Below are positions 20,975 through 44,076 of a DNA stretch of 64,000 nucleotides, piece after piece. A program made the position numbers and the translations under genes. Below the pieces are notes generated by a model. The model made no database searches, had not been told where the DNA came from, and saw nothing but the letters and a program-made list of their open reading frames with translations. Positions within the stretch are counted from its first letter, which is position 1; each line of letters opens with the position of its first letter. The stretch is from Escherichia coli (lineage in GTDB: Bacteria; Pseudomonadota; Gammaproteobacteria; Enterobacterales; Enterobacteriaceae), in NCBI RefSeq assembly GCF_041248615.1, contig NZ_CP158426.1, one strand, 5' to 3'.

Positions 20975-21267
20975 TATAAATGTCCCATTAAAGCTGGATA
21001 AATAAATTGACGGCGGCATCGGTAATTTGAGATTCGTTATAATTAAAAACGAACACAGAAAAAATAAGTATAATTTTGGTGAATGTTTTTGACATGATTA
21101 AATCCCTTTACTTTATTTATTTCTGACATAATACGTTACTCCCTTTTATTATTAACGATCTGTTTCTCATTTTTCTTTAAACCTGCCTGTAACAGAATGT
21201 TAATAAGACATGATTGTTGTGGCAGGATCTGCAATAATTAACAATTATCCACTTCACAGAGAATGCT

Positions 21268-21939: not shown

Positions 21940-22277
21940 TTAAACATTTATAAGCGTTATAAATGGGTGGAACCTGTAAAGACTTCTACTCATTTATATT
22001 CTTTGTCGCCTCTAAAAAACCTCCATTTTGCCCATCCTGGACTAATCATTATCATTTTCTACAAATTCTGTGGCGTTAATTTTTCGTTGGAGTGAAAATT
22101 ATTACGTCGGAGTTTGGTGGATTTTAGTCGGTATAGAATTACTTTAAATATTTGGCTTTTCAATCAATGAATTAAGTGCTCTTTAACATAATGGATGTGT
22201 TGTTTGTGTGTTTCTGTTAAGTTGGTAGATTGTGACTGACTTAAAAAATCAATAATTAATAATAGGTTATGTTTAGT

Positions 22278-22672
22278 GAGTTCCCCGCGCCAGCGGGGAT
22301 AAACCGGCTGATGCGGTTCTATCACCACCACAAATTATGAGTTCCCCGCGCCAGCGGGGATAAACCGCAAATACGCGCGAGTGGCTAACCTGGAATCATG
22401 AGTTCCCCGCGCCAGCGGGGATAAACCGGCGCGGACGATAATCAGGGGCAGGCAGGGCACGAGTTCCCCGCGCCAGCGGGGATAAACCGGAAATCCAATA
22501 TTAACGTGGTGTTTTCAAAACGAGTTCCCCGCGCCAGCGGGGATAAACCGCGTTTAGCTCCGCAATGCTGGATATCACTGATGAGTTCCCCGCGTCAGCG
22601 GGGATAAACCGTATGGGAAACAGTAGCAACGGGCACACTGGCGGAGTTCCCCGCGCCAGCGGGGATAAACCA
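22278..22672 (+). CRISPR. Orphan type I-E CRISPR array (CRISPR-II / 2.1): 7 repeats, 6 spacers of 32 bp, leader on the left
   Basis: 29-bp repeat GAGTTCCCCGCGCCAGCGGGGATAAACCG at 61-bp period; repeat 6 has the GCGTCAG variant; last repeat ends ..AAACCA; AT-rich leader with GTTGGTAGATTGT at 22221-22233. Confidence 0.95.
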
Positions 22673-23140
22673 CCATATAACCCGTAATCTCTTTCTAAAG
22701 TTTTTATATTAGCAGTACTCGTAATAAGCAACATATCCACGTAACACCTCATGTTCAAAATAGCTCTCCATATATGAGAAGTTCACAATTATCGATACAA
22801 AAAATCAAATTTAATTAAAGTGTTAGTTGTATAATACTTAAATCATTAAGAAATTATCATATATTATTTTTTTAATATTGAATTGATGTTTGTTAGTTTT
22901 TTCTTTAGGATAATAGATTGTTTTTTAAGCTTATTATTCATTGATTAAGTAATAAATCTGGAAATTTGTCTTTGTTTTGAGGCTAATGAGTGGTTTTACA
23001 TAACCGTCTCTATAGACTGTTGATGAATAGTTCTTATGAATAAAGATATCCAGTTCATACTTTAAATGAAAATTGATAAAGTACGGTTTGCGTTGTCTTT
23101 TATTCTAAGGACATCGAGTGTAGTTAATATTCCTTGTAAC

Positions 23141-23265
23141 AACAGGGATAAACCGAACTAGTTAAAGTTTTTATTATGTTCCCTGCATCAGCGGGGATAA
23201 ACCGGACTTGTTATCATTTTTTAAGTTGTCGAACTTATGTTCCCCACGTCAGCGGGGATAACCAT
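23141..23265 (+). CRISPR. Degenerate CRISPR remnant (CRISPR 2.2-2.3-like): partial repeat, two degenerate repeats, one 32-bp spacer
   Basis: ..AACAGGGATAAACCG (23141-23155); ATGTTCCCTGCATCAGCGGGGATAAACCG (23176-23204); 32-bp spacer; ATGTTCCCCACGTCAGCGGGGATAACCA (23237-23264). Confidence 0.6.
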
Positions 23266-23310
23266 TCAGGTATGTTCAGGCCGGGCAGTTTCCCGCCCGG
23301 CCTTCCTCAC

Positions 23311-38370: not shown

Positions 38371-39105
38371 ATGTCCAAACTCGATCTAAACGCCCTGAAC
38401 GAACTGCCGAAGGTAGATCGCATTCTGGCGCTGGCAGAAACTAACGCCGAACTGGAAAAACTGGATGCTGAAGGCCGCGTTGCCTGGGCGCTGGATAATC
38501 TGCCCGGTGAATATGTACTTTCTTCCAGTTTCGGCATTCAGGCGGCGGTGAGCCTGCATCTGGTGAATCAGATTCACCCGGATATCCCGGTGATCCTCAC
38601 CGATACGGGTTATCTGTTCCCGGAAACCTACCGCTTTATTGACGAGTTAACGGACAAACTCAAGCTCAACCTGAAAGTGTACCGCGCTACCGAAAGCGCC
38701 GCCTGGCAGGAAGCGCGCTACGGCAAACTGTGGGAGCAGGGCGTTGAAGGCATTGAAAAGTACAATGACATCAACAAAGTCGAACCGATGAACCGGGCGC
38801 TGAAAGAACTGAATGCGCAAACCTGGTTTGCTGGCCTGCGCCGTGAACAATCCGGCAGCCGCGCCAATTTACCGGTGCTGGCAATTCAGCGTGGCGTATT
38901 TAAAGTGCTGCCGATTATCGACTGGGATAACCGAACTATTTATCAGTACCTGCAAAAACATGGCCTGAAATATCACCCATTATGGGATGAAGGATATTTA
39001 TCGGTCGGTGATACCCATACAACCCGTAAATGGGAACCCGGCATGGCGGAAGAAGAAACGCGTTTCTTTGGCTTAAAAAGAGAATGTGGGTTACACGAAG
39101 GGTAA
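38371..39105 (+). CDS. cysH: Phosphoadenosine phosphosulfate (PAPS) reductase CysH
   Basis: ORF 38218-39105; start at ATG 38371 ([15 protein letters not shown]...) gives 244 aa. Confidence 0.9.
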
Positions 39106-39123
39106 ATATTGCCGGATAAATTA

Positions 39124-39161
39124 AACGCCTCTGTCAGAAATGATGGGGGCGTTTTTATTTT
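39124..39161 (+). terminator. Intrinsic terminator after cysH
   Basis: Hairpin AAACGCC..GGGGGCGTTT followed by TTTTATTTT. Confidence 0.6.
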
Positions 39162-39369
39162 GCGAGCAGCATTCCTGATTTTAAACGTGAACGCCGCTGG
39201 AAGAATTATCAGGTATAGAATGGCGTTGGGTGCTTGAGGCTGTCTGGCGTTAAGCATTCGCGAGGTTCCAGATGGACAAAAGCCCCAGGCGATATTTCTA
39301 TCAACCTGAGGCCAGCGTTCGAACCTAAGCAATTCGAATGTTAGTCTCTTCTTTGCAGGGAGGCAAGAC

Positions 39370-39522
39370 ATGCTGACAAAATATGCCCTTGTGGCAATCA
39401 TCGTACTGTGTTGTACAGTACTGGGATTCACGCTGATGGTAGGCGACTCGTTGTGTGAGTTGAGTATCAGAGAACGTGGTATGGAGTTTAAGGCAGTTCT
39501 CGCTTACGAATCGAAGAAGTAG
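39370..39522 (+). CDS. Hok/Gef-family small membrane toxin (50 aa), HokE-like; not in ORF track because shorter than 60 aa
   Basis: [50 protein letters not shown]: hydrophobic N-terminal helix, conserved Cys, Hok signature ..LCE..R...E..A.LAYE; mRNA-like 5' GGGUGCUUGAGGC and 3' GCACCC plus T-run. Confidence 0.7.
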
Positions 39523-39716
39523 CCACCACGCGGGGGTAAAACCCCGCGTATTGAATTGTGATGGTTTGGTCTCCTGCACCCTTTTTTAATTTATATTGTT
39601 TATGTGAATATTATGCCTATGTTTATTATTTATATATATTACTGATGAAAATTATTTGATTATTCATAATGTAAATATTTTATTGAACGATATATATCAC
39701 AGATAATTTTTAATAT

Positions 39717-42416
39717 ATGCGTAAATATCCTTTAAGTTTACTGAAGGATAAAAATATTGTGACTTTTTTTGATTTCTGGGGAAAAACCCGACGCGGCGAG
39801 AAAGACGGGGGCGACGACTATCACCTTCTTTGCTGGCATTCGCTGGATGTAGCCGCGATGGGCTATTTAATGGTTAAAAGCAATTGCTTCGGACTGGCTG
39901 ACTATTTTCGTCAATTAGAGATTTCTGACAAGGAACAGGCGGCTCAATTTTTCGCCTGGTTGTTGTGCTGGCACGATACTGGTAAATTTGCCCGCTCATT
40001 TCAGCAACTTTACCTGCACCCGAAACTCAGGGTTCCGGAAGGTGCTAGAAAAAATTACGAAAAAATCTCTCATTCAACGCTGGGCTACTGGTTGTGGCAT
40101 CATTATTTAAGTGAATGTCAGGAGTTACTTCCTTCCTCTTCACTCTCTCCCCGCAAACTTACACGTGTAATAGCGATGTGGATGCCCATAACTACCGGGC
40201 ATCATGGTCGCCCGCCTGACCGTATTGATGAACTGGATAATTTTCTGCCTGAAGACAAAGCTGCCGCGCGAGATTTTCTTCTTGAAATCAAACCACTGTT
40301 TCCGCTCATAGAGATCCCCGCATTCTGGGATGATGATGAGGGCATTGAACTTATAAAACACCTTTCCTGGTATATCTCTGCAACCGTCGTGCTCGCAGAC
40401 TGGACGGGTTCGTCAACGCGATTTTTTCCACGCGTCGCACACCCAATGGATATTAAAGGTTACTGGCAGAAAACTTTAGTTCAGGCTCAAAACGCCTTAA
40501 CCGTCTTTCCTCTAAAAGCAAAAGTCGCGCCTTTCACCGGAATTAATACGCTGTTTCCTTTTATTGAGAATCCGACACCGTTACAGCAAAAGGTGCTGGA
40601 TCTGGATATCAGCCAGCCAGGGCCACAGTTATTTATTCTGGAAGATGTGACTGGCGCAGGTAAAACGGAAGCGGCGCTTATCCTGGCGCACAGGTTGATG
40701 GCTGCGGGTAAAGCGCAGAGTTTGTTTTTTGGCCTGCCAACAATGGCAACGGCCAATGCCATGTACGATCGACTGGTCAAAACCTGGCTTGCTTTCTATT
40801 CGCCAGAGTCCCGCCCCAGCCTGGTGCTGGCACACAGTGCCCGAACATTAATGGACCGCTTTAATGAATCACTCTGGTCCGGTGATTTAGTCGGGTCAGA
40901 AGAACCGGATGAACAAACGTTCAGTCAGGGATGTGCGGCCTGGTTTGCCGACAGTAACAAGAAGGCGCTACTGGCTGAAATTGGCGTCGGCACGCTGGAT
41001 CAGGCGATGATGGCGGTGATGCCGTTCAAACATAATAATGTGCGGCTTCTGGGACTGAGTAACAAAATCCTGCTGGCTGATGAGATCCATGCCTGTGACG
41101 CTTACATGTCATGCATTCTTGAAGGGCTGATCGAGCGGCAGGCGCGTGGCGGAAACAGCGTCATTTTGCTTTCTGCCACGTTATCTCAACAGCAGTGCGA
41201 CAAACTCGTTGCTGCCTTTGCGCGTGGTACAGAGGGCCAGCAAGAAGCTCCGTTCCTGGAAAAGGATGATTACCCCTGGCTGACGCACGTTACGAAATCC
41301 GATGTGCATTCACACCGGGTAGCGACGCGCAAAGACGTTGAGCGTAGCGTGAGCGTGGGTTGGCTTCATAGCGAACAAGAATGTATTGCGCGTATCGAAT
41401 CGGCAGTAAGTCAGGGGAAATGCATCGCCTGGATCCGGAATTCTGTCGATGACGCTATTAAGGTTTATCGTCAGTTGCTTGCCCGCGGCGTCATTCCTGC
41501 TTCCAGCCTTTCTCTTTTTCATAGCCGCTTTGCTTTTAGCGATCGCCAGCGAATTGAAACGGAAACGCTGGCACGCTTCGGTAAAAGTTGTAGTTTACAG
41601 AGATCATCACAAGTCATTGTTTGTACACAAGTAATTGAACAAAGTGTGGATATTGACCTGGACGAAATGATCTCCGACCTGGCCCCTGTTGATTTGCTGA
41701 TCCAGCGAGCGGGGCGATTACAGCGGCATATCCGCGATATTAATGGTCAGTTAAAGCGTGACGGAAAAGACGAGCGTTCTCCTCCTGAATTGCTGATTCT
41801 GGCCCCCGTCTGGGACGACTCTCCGGGTGATGAATGGTTTGGCAGAGCCATGCGTAACAGTGCATATGTCTACCCCGATCATGGGCGAATCTGGCTGACG
41901 CAGCGTGTGCTGCGTCAGCAAGGCGCTATTCAGATGCCACACTCAGCCCGGCTTCTGATTGAATCAGTCTACGGTGAGGACGTGGTAATGGCGGAAGGGT
42001 TTGCCCGCAGCGAGCAGGAGCAAGTGGGCAAATATTACTGCGATCGCGCAATGGCTAAAAAGTTTGTCCTGAACTTCAAGCCTGGCTATGCCGCCAATAT
42101 CAACGATTACCTTCCGGAAAAGCTGTCGACACGTCTGGCGGAGGAGTCTGTTTCCCTGTGGCTGGCTACCTGTATTGCCAGTGTGGTGAAGCCTTATGCC
42201 AACGGTGCTCACGCATGGGAAATGAGCGTTGTCAGAGTGCGTCGAAGCTGGTGGAAAAAACATCGGGATGAGTTTTCTTTACTGGAAGGGGAAGCGTTCA
42301 GGCAGTGGTGCATTGAACAGCGGAAAGATCCGGAGATGGCAAACGTGATTTTAGTTACCGATGACGAAAGTTGCGGGTATTCGGCTATGGAAGGATTGAC
42401 TGGCAAGGTTGGTTGA
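39717..42416 (+). CDS. cas3: Type I-E Cas3 helicase-nuclease (HD plus DEAD/DEAH helicase), variant not of K-12 type
   Basis: 899-aa ORF with Walker A LEDVTGAGKTEA and DEIH-like motif; alternative GTG start at 39759 with AAGGA 10 nt upstream. Confidence 0.85.
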   Translation: MRKYPLSLLKDKNIVTFFDFWGKTRRGEKDGGDDYHLLCWHSLDVAAMGYLMVKSNCFGLADYFRQLEISDKEQAAQFFAWLLCWHDTGKFARSFQQLYLHPKLRVPEGARKNYEKISHSTLGYWLWHHYLSECQELLPSSSLSPRKLTRVIAMWMPITTGHHGRPPDRIDELDNFLPEDKAAARDFLLEIKPLFPLIEIPAFWDDDEGIELIKHLSWYISATVVLADWTGSSTRFFPRVAHPMDIKGYWQKTLVQAQNALTVFPLKAKVAPFTGINTLFPFIENPTPLQQKVLDLDISQPGPQLFILEDVTGAGKTEAALILAHRLMAAGKAQSLFFGLPTMATANAMYDRLVKTWLAFYSPESRPSLVLAHSARTLMDRFNESLWSGDLVGSEEPDEQTFSQGCAAWFADSNKKALLAEIGVGTLDQAMMAVMPFKHNNVRLLGLSNKILLADEIHACDAYMSCILEGLIERQARGGNSVILLSATLSQQQCDKLVAAFARGTEGQQEAPFLEKDDYPWLTHVTKSDVHSHRVATRKDVERSVSVGWLHSEQECIARIESAVSQGKCIAWIRNSVDDAIKVYRQLLARGVIPASSLSLFHSRFAFSDRQRIETETLARFGKSCSLQRSSQVIVCTQVIEQSVDIDLDEMISDLAPVDLLIQRAGRLQRHIRDINGQLKRDGKDERSPPELLILAPVWDDSPGDEWFGRAMRNSAYVYPDHGRIWLTQRVLRQQGAIQMPHSARLLIESVYGEDVVMAEGFARSEQEQVGKYYCDRAMAKKFVLNFKPGYAANINDYLPEKLSTRLAEESVSLWLATCIASVVKPYANGAHAWEMSVVRVRRSWWKKHRDEFSLLEGEAFRQWCIEQRKDPEMANVILVTDDESCGYSAMEGLTGKVG

Positions 42417-42513
42417 GATGCCTGCGACAGGGCTCTCTGAATAGTTGATACACCGAAAAGGATGGAATGATGGACAACCGACCTAGGATGGTCTTTTTTA
42501 CGAGAGGATGCGT

Positions 42514-44076
42514 ATGAACTCGTTTTCACTTCTGACAACCCCGTGGTTGCCCGTTCGTTATAAAGACGGAACGACAGGCAAACTGGCGCCTGTCGATCTG
42601 GCGGATGAAAATGTTGTCGATATTGCTGCGCCACGGGCAGATCTCCAGGGAGCGGCATGGCAGTTTTTGCTGGGGCTACTACAAACCAGCTTTGCGCCAA
42701 AAGATCATCGTCGTTGGGATGATATCTGGGAAGACGGACTGGAATCTGAAAAGCTACGGGAAGCATTGCTGTCCTTAGAACACGCTTTCCAGTTTGGGCC
42801 AGATTCCCCTTCATTTATGCAGGATTTCGAGGCGCTCACAGGAGATAAAGTTCAGGTCGCTTCGCTACTGCCTGAGATTCCCGGCGCTCAAACAACGAAG
42901 TTTAATAAAGACCACTTTATCAAGCGTGGTGTAACGGAATACCTGTGCCCACATTGTTCTGCGTTAGCTCTGTTCTCCCTACAGTTAAATGCGCCGTCAG
43001 GTGGTAAAGGCTACCGCACCGGTTTACGCGGCGGTGGGCCGATGACCACTCTGATTGAATTACAGGAATATCAGGGCAATCAACAAACGCCCTTGTGGCG
43101 CAAACTGTGGCTCAATGTGATGCCGCAGGACGAAGCCGACTTACCGCTACCCAAAAAATTTGACGATCTGGTTTTCCCCTGGCTTGGCCCGACGCGTACC
43201 AGCGAACTGGCCGGTGCGGTGGTAACCGATGATCAGGTTAATAAACTCCAGGCGTACTGGGGAATGCCGCGGCGTATTCGTATTGATTTTAATACCACGA
43301 CAGTCGGCAACTGCGATATTTGCGGCGAGCAGAACGACGCGCTCCTGAGCCTGATGACGACCAAAAATTACGGCGCGAATTATGCCATGTGGCAGCATCC
43401 CTTAACGCCTTACCGTGTACCCCTTAAAGAGGGCGGCGAGTTTTACTCGGTCAAACCACAACCAGGCGGTTTAATCTGGCGCGACTGGTTAGGCCTTATC
43501 GAAACGGGTAAATCAGAAAACAATACGGAACTTCCCGCGCTGGTGGTGAAACTCTTTAATGCCAGCAGTCTCAAGCAGGCAAAAGTGGGCCTGTGGGGAT
43601 TTGGTTATGATTTTGACAACATGAAAGCGCGCTGTTGGTACGAACACCATTTTCCGCTGCTGCTCGATAAAAAAGAAGGCCAGATACCGAAGCTGCGGCT
43701 GGCTGCGCAAACGGCTTCACGGATTCTGAGTCTGTTACGGAGTGCATTGAAAGAAGCGTGGTTCTCCGATCCAAAAGGTGCACGGGGTGATTTCAGTTTT
43801 GTGGATATCGACTTCTGGAACAAAACTCAGCATCGCTTCCTGAGGTTAGTGCGCCACATTGAAGAAGGTCAGGATGCGGATGAATTACTCAGCAAATGGC
43901 AAAAGGAAATTTGGTTATTCGCGCGTCAGGATTTTGACGAGCGTGTCTTCACCAATCCATATGAGCCCGTTGATTTGAAACGCGTCATGACCGCGCGCAA
44001 GAAATATTTTACAACATCGGCGGAGAAGCAAAATGCTAAAGCCGCCAGGGAGAAAAAGCAGGAGGCTGCTGAATGA
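42514..44076 (+). CDS. casA: Cascade large subunit Cse1 (CasA)
   Basis: ORF 42508-44076; second ATG 42514 has better spacing from GAGAGG; about 520 aa; position after cas3. Confidence 0.8.
   Translation: MNSFSLLTTPWLPVRYKDGTTGKLAPVDLADENVVDIAAPRADLQGAAWQFLLGLLQTSFAPKDHRRWDDIWEDGLESEKLREALLSLEHAFQFGPDSPSFMQDFEALTGDKVQVASLLPEIPGAQTTKFNKDHFIKRGVTEYLCPHCSALALFSLQLNAPSGGKGYRTGLRGGGPMTTLIELQEYQGNQQTPLWRKLWLNVMPQDEADLPLPKKFDDLVFPWLGPTRTSELAGAVVTDDQVNKLQAYWGMPRRIRIDFNTTTVGNCDICGEQNDALLSLMTTKNYGANYAMWQHPLTPYRVPLKEGGEFYSVKPQPGGLIWRDWLGLIETGKSENNTELPALVVKLFNASSLKQAKVGLWGFGYDFDNMKARCWYEHHFPLLLDKKEGQIPKLRLAAQTASRILSLLRSALKEAWFSDPKGARGDFSFVDIDFWNKTQHRFLRLVRHIEEGQDADELLSKWQKEIWLFARQDFDERVFTNPYEPVDLKRVMTARKKYFTTSAEKQNAKAAREKKQEAAE

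Follow-up and report, generated by a model that had tools for sequence, protein, structure and literature searches.

The cas3 gene of the cas-E1 variant in Escherichia coli raises the question of where translation of Cas3, the effector nuclease of type I-E CRISPR interference, begins and what the DNA in front of this start does. RefSeq (PGAP) places the start at ATG 39717, which results in a protein of 899 aa, and a GTG lies in the same frame 14 codons (42 bases) further 3' (Table 1). We examined this locus within a stretch of 64,000 nt of E. coli DNA, which is referred to as the window. A sequence-only reading of this DNA had favored the GTG as the likely true start, and our comparisons support this view, as the starts of orthologs align with the GTG and a frame-breaking indel between the two codons is tolerated. 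Judged by sequence, GTG 39759 is probably the native start of a Cas3 of 885 aa, and ATG 39717 probably is not. With a probability of roughly 0.7, we regard the region as the 5' control region of E1 cas3 that comprises the GTG start, a leader hairpin, and an AT-rich promoter presumed to be silenced by H-NS.

The Cas3 HD domain was recognized by PF18019 (residues 21-237 of the ATG form, E 2.8e-31) and TIGR01596 (84 bits vs. a cutoff of 43), its HD-motif residues are invariant across the Cas3 alignment, and the helicase core (TIGR01587, 227.7 bits vs. a cutoff of 102) and the C-terminal domain (PF22590, 117 bits) follow. With these domains and casA/cse1 as neighbor, the protein is a type I-E Cas3. 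RefSeq annotates casA 3' of cas3 in an identical strain and in E. coli 042, and an ORF of 522 aa is found at 42508-44076. With the model of the K-12-type (cas-E2) Cas3, NF007248, the score was 424 bits, below the cutoff of 569; the window carries the E1 and not the E2 variant. The gene order is cysJIH, hok/sok, cas3, and casA, which is the order of the cas-E1 CRISPR-I locus given by Almendros et al. (2014; mBio, PMC3903273) with cysH, hok/sok, IG3, IG4, and cas3-E1. The reverse complement of the E1-specific primer cas3E1-R, GAGAAAGACGGGGGCGACGA, matches the window at 39798-39817, and this match, the hok/sok unit, and the E1-linked intergenic segment together identify the cas-E1 variant. DNA homology between the window and K-12 ends at 39372, and the sequence is unrelated from 39373 on. 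The E1 region was found in about 2,695 of 5,426 complete E. coli genomes, i.e., in about half of them, O157:H7 and O104:H4 included. As far as its available part shows, the study by Almendros et al. (2014) is concerned with the E1 module and its evolution, and neither the start codon nor the leader hairpin nor the T indel comes up in it; in the literature on E1 cas3, we found no transcription start site, ribosome profiling, proteomic, H-NS ChIP, or start-codon account.

The unit in front of cas3 has the toxin ORF, the sok/hok leader RNA, and the predicted long-range pairing between the 5' and 3' ends of the mRNA that together identify a Hok/Sok system. Homology with E. coli strains that lack E1 cas3 breaks off at 39588, and leader, ORF, predicted fold, and homology break all back the earlier claim that the hok-like mRNA ends near 39586. 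A terminator scan found no canonical local terminator at the hok 3' end. Matches to the Rfam families ctRNA_p42d and Spot 42 at 39063-39163 scored far under the gathering score, lie on the cysH terminator, and were taken as chance.

Table 1. Features of the hok/sok-cas3 region, in positions of the window.
Feature	Position	Strand	Basis or remark
hok/sok type I toxin-antitoxin transcript region	39228..39587	+	Rfam, Pfam, predicted fold
sok/hok leader	39228-39385	+	Rfam RF01794, 111.7 bits vs. gathering score 59, E 3e-26
Hok ORF	39370-39522	+	PF01848; RefSeq name 'Hok/Gef family protein'
G+C-rich hairpin of the hok unit	39531-39549	+	
hok 3' segment pairing with the mRNA 5' end (39228)	39567-39581	+	predicted fold, z -3.8
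U-run closing the hok unit	39582-39587	+	directly after the 39567-39581 pairing segment
AT-rich intergenic region, E1-linked; presumed cas3 promoter/silencing region	39589..39716	.	composition, homology break
Block invariant in sampled E. coli alleles save two point polymorphisms and the loop T indel; candidate core promoter and cas3 5' UTR	39690..39758	+	alignments
RefSeq-annotated cas3 start ATG	39717..39719	+	without SD; in orthologs and 4-T strains either missing or not in frame
Predicted RNA hairpin UAUCCUUUA-(AGUUUAC)-UGAAGGAUA, 9 bp, SD in 3' arm	39726..39750	+	MFE -8.2 kcal/mol
T-run in hairpin loop; 3 T in window, 4 T in Escherichia outgroups as well as in no fewer than 47 complete E. 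coli genomes	39737..39739	+	alignments
Shine-Dalgarno (SD) sequence AAGGA, 10 nt 5' of GTG	39744..39748	+	anti-SD duplex -5.5 kcal/mol
cas3 (type I-E, cas-E1) from conserved GTG 39759-39761, 885 codons and stop	39759..42416	+	Pfam, ortholog starts

The two candidate starts differ in their SD sequences, as had already been noticed from the sequence. In the 22 nt 5' of ATG 39717, the best anti-SD duplex had +0.4 kcal/mol, which equals none, whereas the duplex at the AAGGA in front of the GTG is among the best 15% of all ATG and GTG codons on the same strand. The GTG form begins with (M)TFFDFWGK, and the WGK motif (39777-39785) is at residues 7-9, near the N-terminus, as had been predicted. The Pfam domain Cas3_HD begins at the W of this motif. 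In strains with three T, the N-terminus of the ATG form is MRKYPLSLLKDK..., with the W at residue 21. Solved Cas3 structures were considered as a guide to the N-terminal length and did not discriminate between the two starts, because the W of T. fusca Cas3 is also at residue 21.

The closest Cas3 proteins from outside Escherichia (63-66% identity) begin with MSIYHYWGK, MNIYNYWGK, or MELFDYWGK, and these N-termini align to V15 of the annotated protein. In Salmonella diarizonae, three Citrobacter, Phytobacter, and E. albertii, a GTG or TTG is exactly aligned to 39759; each of these orthologs has its own SD-like motif and in-frame stops 5-25 codons upstream with no ATG between, and no similarity exists 5' of the aligned start codon. 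The 14 residues upstream of the GTG, whose conservation in orthologs had been named as counter-evidence to the GTG start, are absent in every ortholog outside E. coli. All E1-type orthologs have a purine-rich SD-like motif (anti-SD duplex of -3.0 to -7.0 kcal/mol in the 20 nt upstream) that by eye is about 4-10 nt away from the aligned start, and in the E1 clade the SD-equipped start sits 4-6 codons before the W. At 48 of 78 Cas3 loci, fewer than 20 codons are open before the W, and a protein with W21 is therefore impossible there. The extension is thus unconserved while the downstream start and its SD are conserved, which is the pattern of an over-extended start.

A single nucleotide determines if the ATG shares its frame with cas3. 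In place of the TTT of the window, the loci L004, L005, and L006, E. albertii, and E. coli 042 have TTTT, and due to this extra T the ATG of 4-T alleles is out of frame with cas3. The genome count in Table 1 refers to complete E. coli genomes with the exact 4-T 88-mer; among the approximately 2,695 genomes with the region, the 4-T state is a minority, and the great majority have an in-frame ATG. As the in-frame state dominates in E. coli, comparison alone does not settle whether this strain uses the ATG. All five 4-T E. coli strains checked (042 and four more) contained the intact 885-codon ORF from the GTG, ORFs of 885-887 codons from the GTG are conserved in Escherichia sp. and E. albertii as well, and the dN/dS (omega) of 0.13-0.19 between 3-T and 4-T alleles in Escherichia comparisons indicates purifying selection. 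Hence, a frame-breaking change between ATG and GTG is tolerated by a gene that is intact and under purifying selection, again as seen with over-extended starts. RefSeq flags cas3 as a 'frameshifted' pseudogene in the same five 4-T strains, and these calls are probably wrong.

Among nine sampled 3-T alleles, the stretch 39717-39758 had no substitution at all, and a codon-level test of these 42 nt within 3-T E. coli therefore has no power; the cas3 dS, which was measured for one 3-T pair, was about 0.2 between the window and O157. The only length change in the leader is in the hairpin loop. In 4-T alleles, the ATG would open an ORF of 11 codons, MRKYPLSFTEG, with its stop 7 nt before the GTG. 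This ORF is present in 042, L004, and L006, and L005 has a version with 3 of 11 residues changed (MLKYPSRFTEG). In E. albertii, a TTG is at the position of the ATG, and the corresponding ORF has 5 codons and ends before the hairpin loop.

We propose that the 14 codons from ATG 39717 are leader and not ancestral coding sequence, and that a 1-nt deletion within the T-run put a pre-existing ATG into frame in most E. coli; longest-ORF logic would then have selected this ATG for annotation. Known over-extended annotations, which go back to longest-ORF choice or propagation in protein clusters, have in common with the window an SD-less upstream in-frame ATG, an unconserved extension, and a conserved non-ATG start with SD. 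The window differs from the usual case in that the extension would have arisen by a datable 1-nt deletion and that the error would yield false 'frameshifted' calls in strains with the ancestral state.

In the predicted fold of the leader, a hairpin pairs the SD with the upstream UCCUU at 39728-39732, and the predicted probability of an unpaired SD is 0.01. The significance of the hairpin was modest (z -1.5 on 59 nt, -3.0 on 32 nt), and comparison of the SD sequestration with that of shuffled upstream sequences gave empirical p values of 0.007 for the window, 0.022 for 042, 0.002 for L005, and 0.05 for E. albertii. The hairpin is kept in L005 with one U.G to C-G change, and E. albertii has a stem of different sequence. 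In the predicted folds of Salmonella, Citrobacter, and Klebsiella orthologs, no SD-sequestering hairpin was found, and SD sequestration as a family-wide feature was therefore rejected, as it is confined to Escherichia alleles. Leader-ORF translational coupling and SD-sequestering leader hairpins are known, for example from mok-hok. The window likewise pairs an anti-SD UCCUU with the SD, and the short upstream ORF of the 4-T alleles overlaps the structure. In contrast to the known cases, the hairpin is a prediction restricted to Escherichia, with covariation limited to the change in L005 and the re-invented stem of E. albertii. On the basis of the fold model, this hairpin may form and repress cas3 translation.

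The description of 39590-39716 as strongly AT-rich was fully borne out. These 127 nt have a G+C content of 15% vs. 51% in the whole window, and only 17 of 63,874 windows of this length were equally low or lower, in two places (39590-39716 and at about 22.8 kb), so that the segment shares the bottom of the G+C range of the 64 kb with one other stretch. An A+T content that is far above the genome average over at least 100 bp is typical of H-NS-bound promoters, and the segment has this property. A repeat search of the region returned low-complexity AT-rich matches only. The segment from 39589 to 39716 probably corresponds to the IG4 of Almendros et al. (2014), which is always linked to E1 according to that study; the E1 module described there and the window share an intergenic segment that is confined to E1. 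Low G+C 5' of cas3 (0.24-0.34) recurs in orthologs in which this region is not alignable and the flanks are unrelated. For S. Typhi, one report (PMC8039139, citing Medina-Aparicio et al., 2017) describes cas3 as an independent transcriptional unit that is silenced by H-NS. From composition and this analogy, silencing of the AT-rich region by H-NS is plausible. The H-NS nucleation motif (TCGATAAATT-like) was dropped as evidence: the best match was 8/10 (TCAATAAAAT, minus strand, 39677), the nine matches of at least 7/10 in 170 bp are what the AT content alone would give, and an enrichment exists only at the level of composition.

A strict sigma-70 promoter scan of the AT-rich region found none, and a looser weight-matrix scan gave 38 promoter-like pairs in 170 bp with none dominant; such hexamer pairs are about 20-fold denser there than in the window on average. 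The best conserved pair consists of a -35 TTTATT at 39679, a 17-nt spacer, and a -10 GATAAT at 39702, with a predicted start at about 39714, and is a candidate for the cas3 promoter. A K-12-like CRP site was rejected, as the best matches (39603 and 39686) have three mismatches and the window holds 394 sites of equal quality. The two halves of the region differ in their conservation. Whereas the 5' half (39590-39660) has many substitutions and indels, with about 38 nt missing in L006, the 3' half (39660-39758) hardly varies even though neutral divergence is high. The same alleles that were compared in the block 39690-39758 have a cas3 dS of 0.20-0.25.

In K-12, the cas3 promoter region is silenced, together with the cas operon, by H-NS. 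CRP acts as its activator (Yang et al., 2020, PMC7019758). The K-12 (cas-E2) gene resembles that of the window by its location directly 3' of cysH, its own promoter, and its low expression (K-12), but it differs by an ATG with the strong SD GGGAGG (-11.1 kcal/mol) and an upstream G+C of 0.35-0.39. The cas3 of S. Typhi, an E1-like ortholog with about 64% identity, shares with the window the aligned GTG with SD and the AT-rich upstream region, but its upstream DNA is unalignable with the window and has no predicted SD-sequestering hairpin.

Taken together, we envisage that the hok/sok transcript ends at about 39587 and that the AT-rich segment (about 130 bp, from 39589) travels with the cas-E1 set and probably houses the cas3 promoter. 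H-NS would bind and silence this segment like other AT-rich enterobacterial cas promoters. Cas3 would then start at GTG 39759, served by AAGGA, with ATG 39717 entirely unused, and the SD-pairing hairpin, the GTG codon, the 10-nt spacing, and the silenced promoter should hold Cas3 synthesis low. It is unlikely that the AT-rich stretch has no regulatory role, merely marks the junction of the cas-E1 acquisition beside hok/sok, and leaves cas3 to hok read-through or an outside promoter. The poor conservation of 39590-39660 including the gap in L006, the lack of a strong single promoter, and the scan result at the hok 3' end would fit such a junction, but the near invariance of 39660-39758, the recurrence of AT-rich DNA upstream of cas3 next to unrelated flanks, and the independent, H-NS-silenced cas3 unit of S. 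Typhi (PMC8039139) argue against it.

As to the start codon, two findings speak against the GTG: the predicted hairpin would hinder initiation there, and the complete invariance of the 42 nt also fits some coding constraint. Initiation is stronger at AUG than at GUG, and unstructured A/U-rich leaders can support SD-independent initiation. The ATG could be the real main start, the deletion having created a functional 14-residue extension that is translated by SD-independent initiation on the A/U-rich, weakly structured leader. We consider this quite unlikely, although the ATG is in frame in most E. coli with the allele, the 42 nt do not vary, the SD of the GTG is predicted to be paired, and Cas3 N-termini vary in length, so that, with T. 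fusca as precedent, the extension would be structurally tolerable. The ATG has no SD, no ortholog has the extension, its frame is lost in 4-T lineages with an intact and selected cas3, and, unlike the ATG, the GTG and its SD are conserved. In addition, the invariance covers synonymous positions and bases 5' of the ATG, which points to constraint at the nucleotide rather than the protein level. It is likewise quite improbable that both codons are used, or that the GTG is under the control of a leader ORF starting at the ATG. Translation of the 11-codon ORF would open the hairpin and be coupled to that of cas3, and ribosomes on 3-T transcripts would make an extended Cas3. The ORF in 042, L004, L006, and L005, a hairpin that spans leader codons 4-12, and the predicted transcription start at about 39714, which would result in a nearly leaderless AUG, are in line with such a control. 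Against it stand the missing SD of the ATG, the fact that the predicted promoter is one among 38 such matches in AT-rich DNA, the TTG and the short ORF of E. albertii that does not reach the loop, and the poor conservation of the peptide, as seen with L005. In its most elaborate form, which is very improbable, the ATG is the ancestral start of the 11-codon ORF on a nearly leaderless transcript, its translation opens the hairpin and couples to the GTG as a translational switch on top of H-NS silencing, and the deletion fused the ORF to cas3, giving rise to an extended Cas3 or two isoforms.

The locus represents ordinary biology and a useful annotation correction that concerns curation and regulatory detail and leaves the understanding of CRISPR unchanged. 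If the annotated start is wrong, 14 non-native residues or a wrong 5' boundary are built into expression constructs, antibodies or tags, and reporter fusions that follow the 899-aa protein, and surveys of intact vs. degraded CRISPR-Cas systems would misscore strains such as 042 as cas3 pseudogenes. The E1 cas3 leader is built quite differently from the well-studied K-12 leader, and a GTG start together with a long SD spacing, a predicted SD-sequestering hairpin, and a promoter region of 15% G+C offers a concrete, testable account of the very low native levels that are expected for E1 Cas3.

Over the 1.3 kb round the cas3 start, the window is 100% identical to Escherichia coli strain 135 and 93–97% identical to about 2,200 other complete E. 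coli genomes. The RefSeq gene order in strain 135 is cysJ, cysI, cysH, Hok/Gef family protein, "CRISPR-associated helicase/endonuclease Cas3", and casA, and a profile search found the Cas3 HD domain, helicase core, and C-terminal domain in the protein. As Cas3 scores only 424 bits against the K-12-type equivalog model (cutoff 569), DNA homology to K-12 stops at 39372 within hok, and the reverse complement of the primer cas3E1-R (Almendros et al., 2014) matches 39798–39817, we assign this cas3 by its sequence to the cas-E1 variant. The cas-E1 variant occurs in O157:H7, O104:H4, and many A, B1, D, and E strains; according to Almendros et al. (2014), it is invariably linked with the intergenic segment IG4, and hok/sok is found in all strains but those with cas-E2. 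In strains without this cas3, shared homology reaches 39588 and no further, and the AT-rich stretch from 39589 is thus part of the cas-E1 module; we infer that it is IG4. On the other side of the gene, casA of strain 135 starts 450 nt past the cas3 stop (L001 6317–6767), whereas the gap is only about 92–98 nt in the window (42416–42514) and in E. coli 042, so that strains nearly identical elsewhere differ either in this intergenic region or in where casA is called to start (identity between strain 135 and the window is 100% over 39100–40400). An E. coli-type hok 3' end, the AT-rich spacer, and a cas3-E1 at 92% protein identity are also present on a Pseudocitrobacter vendiensis contig (NZ_CALSBS010000035.1), which reflects either recent horizontal transfer or assembly contamination.

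RefSeq starts cas3 at the ATG at 39717 in every inspected genome with TTT at 39737–39739 (3-T genomes). The sequence-only reading, whose observations were confirmed in every detail, had noted that this ATG lacks a Shine-Dalgarno sequence (SD) and that a GTG at 39759 has one. Indeed, the ATG has no anti-SD complementarity upstream (+0.4 kcal/mol), and the GTG is in frame 14 codons further on, with AAGGA (39744–39748) exactly 10 nt upstream (−5.5 kcal/mol) and the WGK motif near the N-terminus, at residues 7–9 counted from the GTG. The nearest non-E. coli Cas3 proteins (63–66% identity) begin with MSIYHYWGK, MNIYNYWGK, MELFDYWGK, or MFNYWGK, and their first residue aligns on V15 of the annotated protein or two positions after. 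As predicted proteins inherit the choices of gene callers, we rechecked the starts at the DNA level in one genome per species. The codon aligned to 39759 is GTG in Salmonella diarizonae, Citrobacter sedlakii, C. youngae, a Citrobacter MAG, and E. albertii, and TTG in Phytobacter and Klebsiella indica; K. grimontii has an ATG two codons later. Each start is preceded by a purine-rich SD-like motif (duplex energies computed; distance of about 4–10 nt by eye), and the DNA 5' of the aligned codon is unrelated, has in-frame stops 5–25 codons away, and contains no upstream ATG in these genomes. The 14 residues upstream of the GTG are therefore not conserved in the orthologs, which convincingly supports the earlier proposal that the GTG is the likely start. 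In 48 of 78 Cas3 loci, the reading frame is open for fewer than 20 codons ahead of the W, which makes a protein with its W at residue 21 impossible at those loci; the E1 clade has an SD-bearing start 4–6 codons ahead of the W. Solved Cas3 structures are uninformative as a guide to the start, T. fusca Cas3 having its W at residue 21.

The closest relatives of the window allele, namely those of the Pseudocitrobacter contig (92% identity), Escherichia sp. MOD1-EC7003, E. coli SCPM-O-B-8794, and E. albertii, have TTTT in place of TTT at 39737–39739. In such 4-T alleles, the ATG is out of frame and opens only an 11-codon ORF (MRKYPLSFTEG), the TAA of which lies 7 nt before the GTG. The start region is present in 2,695 of 5,426 complete E. 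coli genomes, and the exact 4-T sequence in at least 47, including the enteroaggregative reference strain 042. The GTG ORF is intact with 885 codons in 042, four further 4-T strains, Escherichia sp., and E. albertii, and has 887 codons in Salmonella and Citrobacter. As dN/dS between 3-T and 4-T alleles is 0.13–0.19, cas3 is under purifying selection where the ATG cannot be the start. All outgroups have four T, and the alignments therefore indicate that the 3-T state is derived and that the loss of one base brought an already present ATG into frame with cas3. RefSeq/PGAP nevertheless lists cas3 as a 2,701-nt "frameshifted" pseudogene from the ATG in each of the five 4-T strains for which the whole gene was examined, and the sole "frameshift" in them is the additional T 5' of the GTG. 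Such flags are very probably false pseudogene calls, an artefact of the 899-aa ATG-start model. Unlike the flagged 4-T alleles, the divergent cas3-E1 of SCPM-O-B-8794 (L005 3025–4386) is truly a pseudogene, as a premature TAG interrupts it after 453 codons.

Features at the cas3 start region and flagged cas3 genes in 4-T strains
Feature	Coordinates	Details	Basis
cysH rho-independent terminator	39123-39154	14-bp stem then T-run	
Best candidate promoter in the conserved part (candidate only)	-35 at 39679; -10 at 39702	TTTATT, 17-nt spacer, GATAAT; predicted start about 39714	
Predicted 9-bp hairpin	39726-39750	5' arm UAUCCUUUA (39726-39734), loop AGUUUAC, 3' arm UGAAGGAUA (39742-39750)	RNA folding
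"Frameshifted" cas3, E. coli 042	L085 3018-5718	GTG ORF intact, 885 codons	RefSeq/PGAP
"Frameshifted" cas3, four further 4-T strains	L093-L096 2918-5618	GTG ORF intact, 885 codons	RefSeq/PGAP
"Frameshifted" cas3, sixth strain, E01	L084 418-892	Gene seen in part	RefSeq/PGAP flag

Across the E. coli alleles sampled, 39690–39758 is invariant except for T/A at 39714, T/C at 39755, and the T indel. Within E. coli, cas3-E1 has a dS of about 0.20–0.25 (window 39759–42416 against O157:H7, L002; 042, L085; and Escherichia sp., L006), which is far above typical E. coli core genes, with the 70 nt immediately upstream being invariant. Among nine 3-T alleles sampled, 39717–39758 shows no substitution, compared to about eight expected in 42 nt under neutrality and about three under cas3-level selection (our own arithmetic from dS), which places the constraint at the level of the nucleotide sequence. 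The predicted hairpin (MFE −8.2 kcal/mol) buries the SD, which pairs with an upstream UCCUU (P(unpaired) 0.01), and the T indel falls in its loop, where it is structurally neutral. The allele of SCPM-O-B-8794 retains the stem, in which a U.G pair has become C-G, and E. albertii has a different predicted stem, UUUUCUG...CAGGAA, that again covers the SD. SD sequestration exceeded shuffled-upstream controls in the window (p 0.007), 042 (0.022), SCPM-O-B-8794 (0.002), and E. albertii (0.05), but not in Salmonella, Citrobacter, or Klebsiella, and the overall fold z is modest (−1.5 on 59 nt, −3.0 on 32 nt). The hairpin is thus a reasonable prediction of an Escherichia-specific element rather than an established one.

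The stretch 39590–39716, described from the sequence as strongly AT-rich, has 15% G+C compared to 51% for the window, a level as low as in only 17 of 63,874 stretches of equal length, which lie at this and one other place. The other extreme AT-rich stretches of the window lie at 21940–23310 (especially 22738–23004) and 21022–21185; at about 22.8 kb, G+C falls to the level seen upstream of cas3, with no ORF of at least 90 aa in the surrounding 1.4 kb. The 5' half (39590–39660) varies freely, part of it being deleted in Escherichia sp. MOD1-EC7003, and the 3' half is conserved. Scans of 170 bp on both strands gave 38 promoter-like hexamer pairs, about 20 times the window-wide density, with none standing out as dominant, as is commonly seen in AT-rich DNA of the type that H-NS binds. 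Low G+C upstream of cas3 (0.24–0.34) also occurs in the orthologs of Salmonella, Citrobacter, Phytobacter, and K. grimontii, the upstream DNA of which is non-alignable, and PMC8039139, citing Medina-Aparicio 2017, describes S. Typhi cas3 as an independent, H-NS-silenced transcriptional unit. Our literature search turned up no data on H-NS, transcription starts, or translation for an E1 allele of E. coli, H-NS motif matches in the region do not exceed the expectation from composition, and the region has no credible CRP site; silencing by H-NS is therefore plausible and well motivated rather than a result.

The neighboring hok unit is real (Rfam sok, 111.7 bits; Pfam HOK_GEF). In its predicted full-length fold (z −3.8), the 5' end at 39228 pairs with 39567–39581, just before a U-run at 39582–39587, in agreement with the mRNA end originally placed at about 39586. 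Weak, sub-threshold Rfam matches to ctRNA_p42d and Spot 42 on the cysH terminator probably reflect only terminator-like structure.

The K-12 (cas-E2) cas3 differs from E1 in starting with an ATG behind a very strong SD, GGGAGG (−11.1 kcal/mol; L097 1365–1624), and its upstream region is much less AT-rich (G+C 0.35–0.39). The K-12 locus has no hok ORF, and a hok/sok leader remnant reaches to about 90 nt from cas3. As the K-12 leader is unrelated in sequence to that of the window, published work on the K-12 promoter, such as its activation by CRP (Yang et al., 2020, PMC7019758), is not transferable to the E1 allele.

Within this overall picture, we consider the GTG the principal native start with a probability of about 0.7. 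The ATG is improbable as the true start of cas3 in 3-T strains, given its lack of an SD and the selection on cas3 in alleles where it is out of frame; we rate equally low that both codons are used or that the leader ORF acts through a coupling mechanism. Both alternatives gain from the ATG being in frame in the majority of E. coli and from the ability of A/U-rich leaders to support SD-independent initiation. In the most likely mechanism, transcription would begin somewhere in 39680–39745 from a promoter embedded in AT-rich DNA that H-NS would coat, and the GUG codon, the 10-nt spacing, and the predicted SD-sequestering hairpin would keep translation low.

The following points seem to be unrecorded in the searchable literature: the start of E1 Cas3 at the GTG, the 3-T/4-T indel, the very probably false "frameshifted" flags, and a predicted SD hairpin unlike K-12. 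The element itself is of an ordinary type, a presumably silenced, AT-rich cas promoter combined with an over-extended start annotation. Taken as a whole, the sequence comparisons identify cas3-E1 as a conserved 885-codon gene that starts at the GTG behind its SD, and the annotated 14-codon extension as a lineage-specific by-product of a 1-nt leader deletion.
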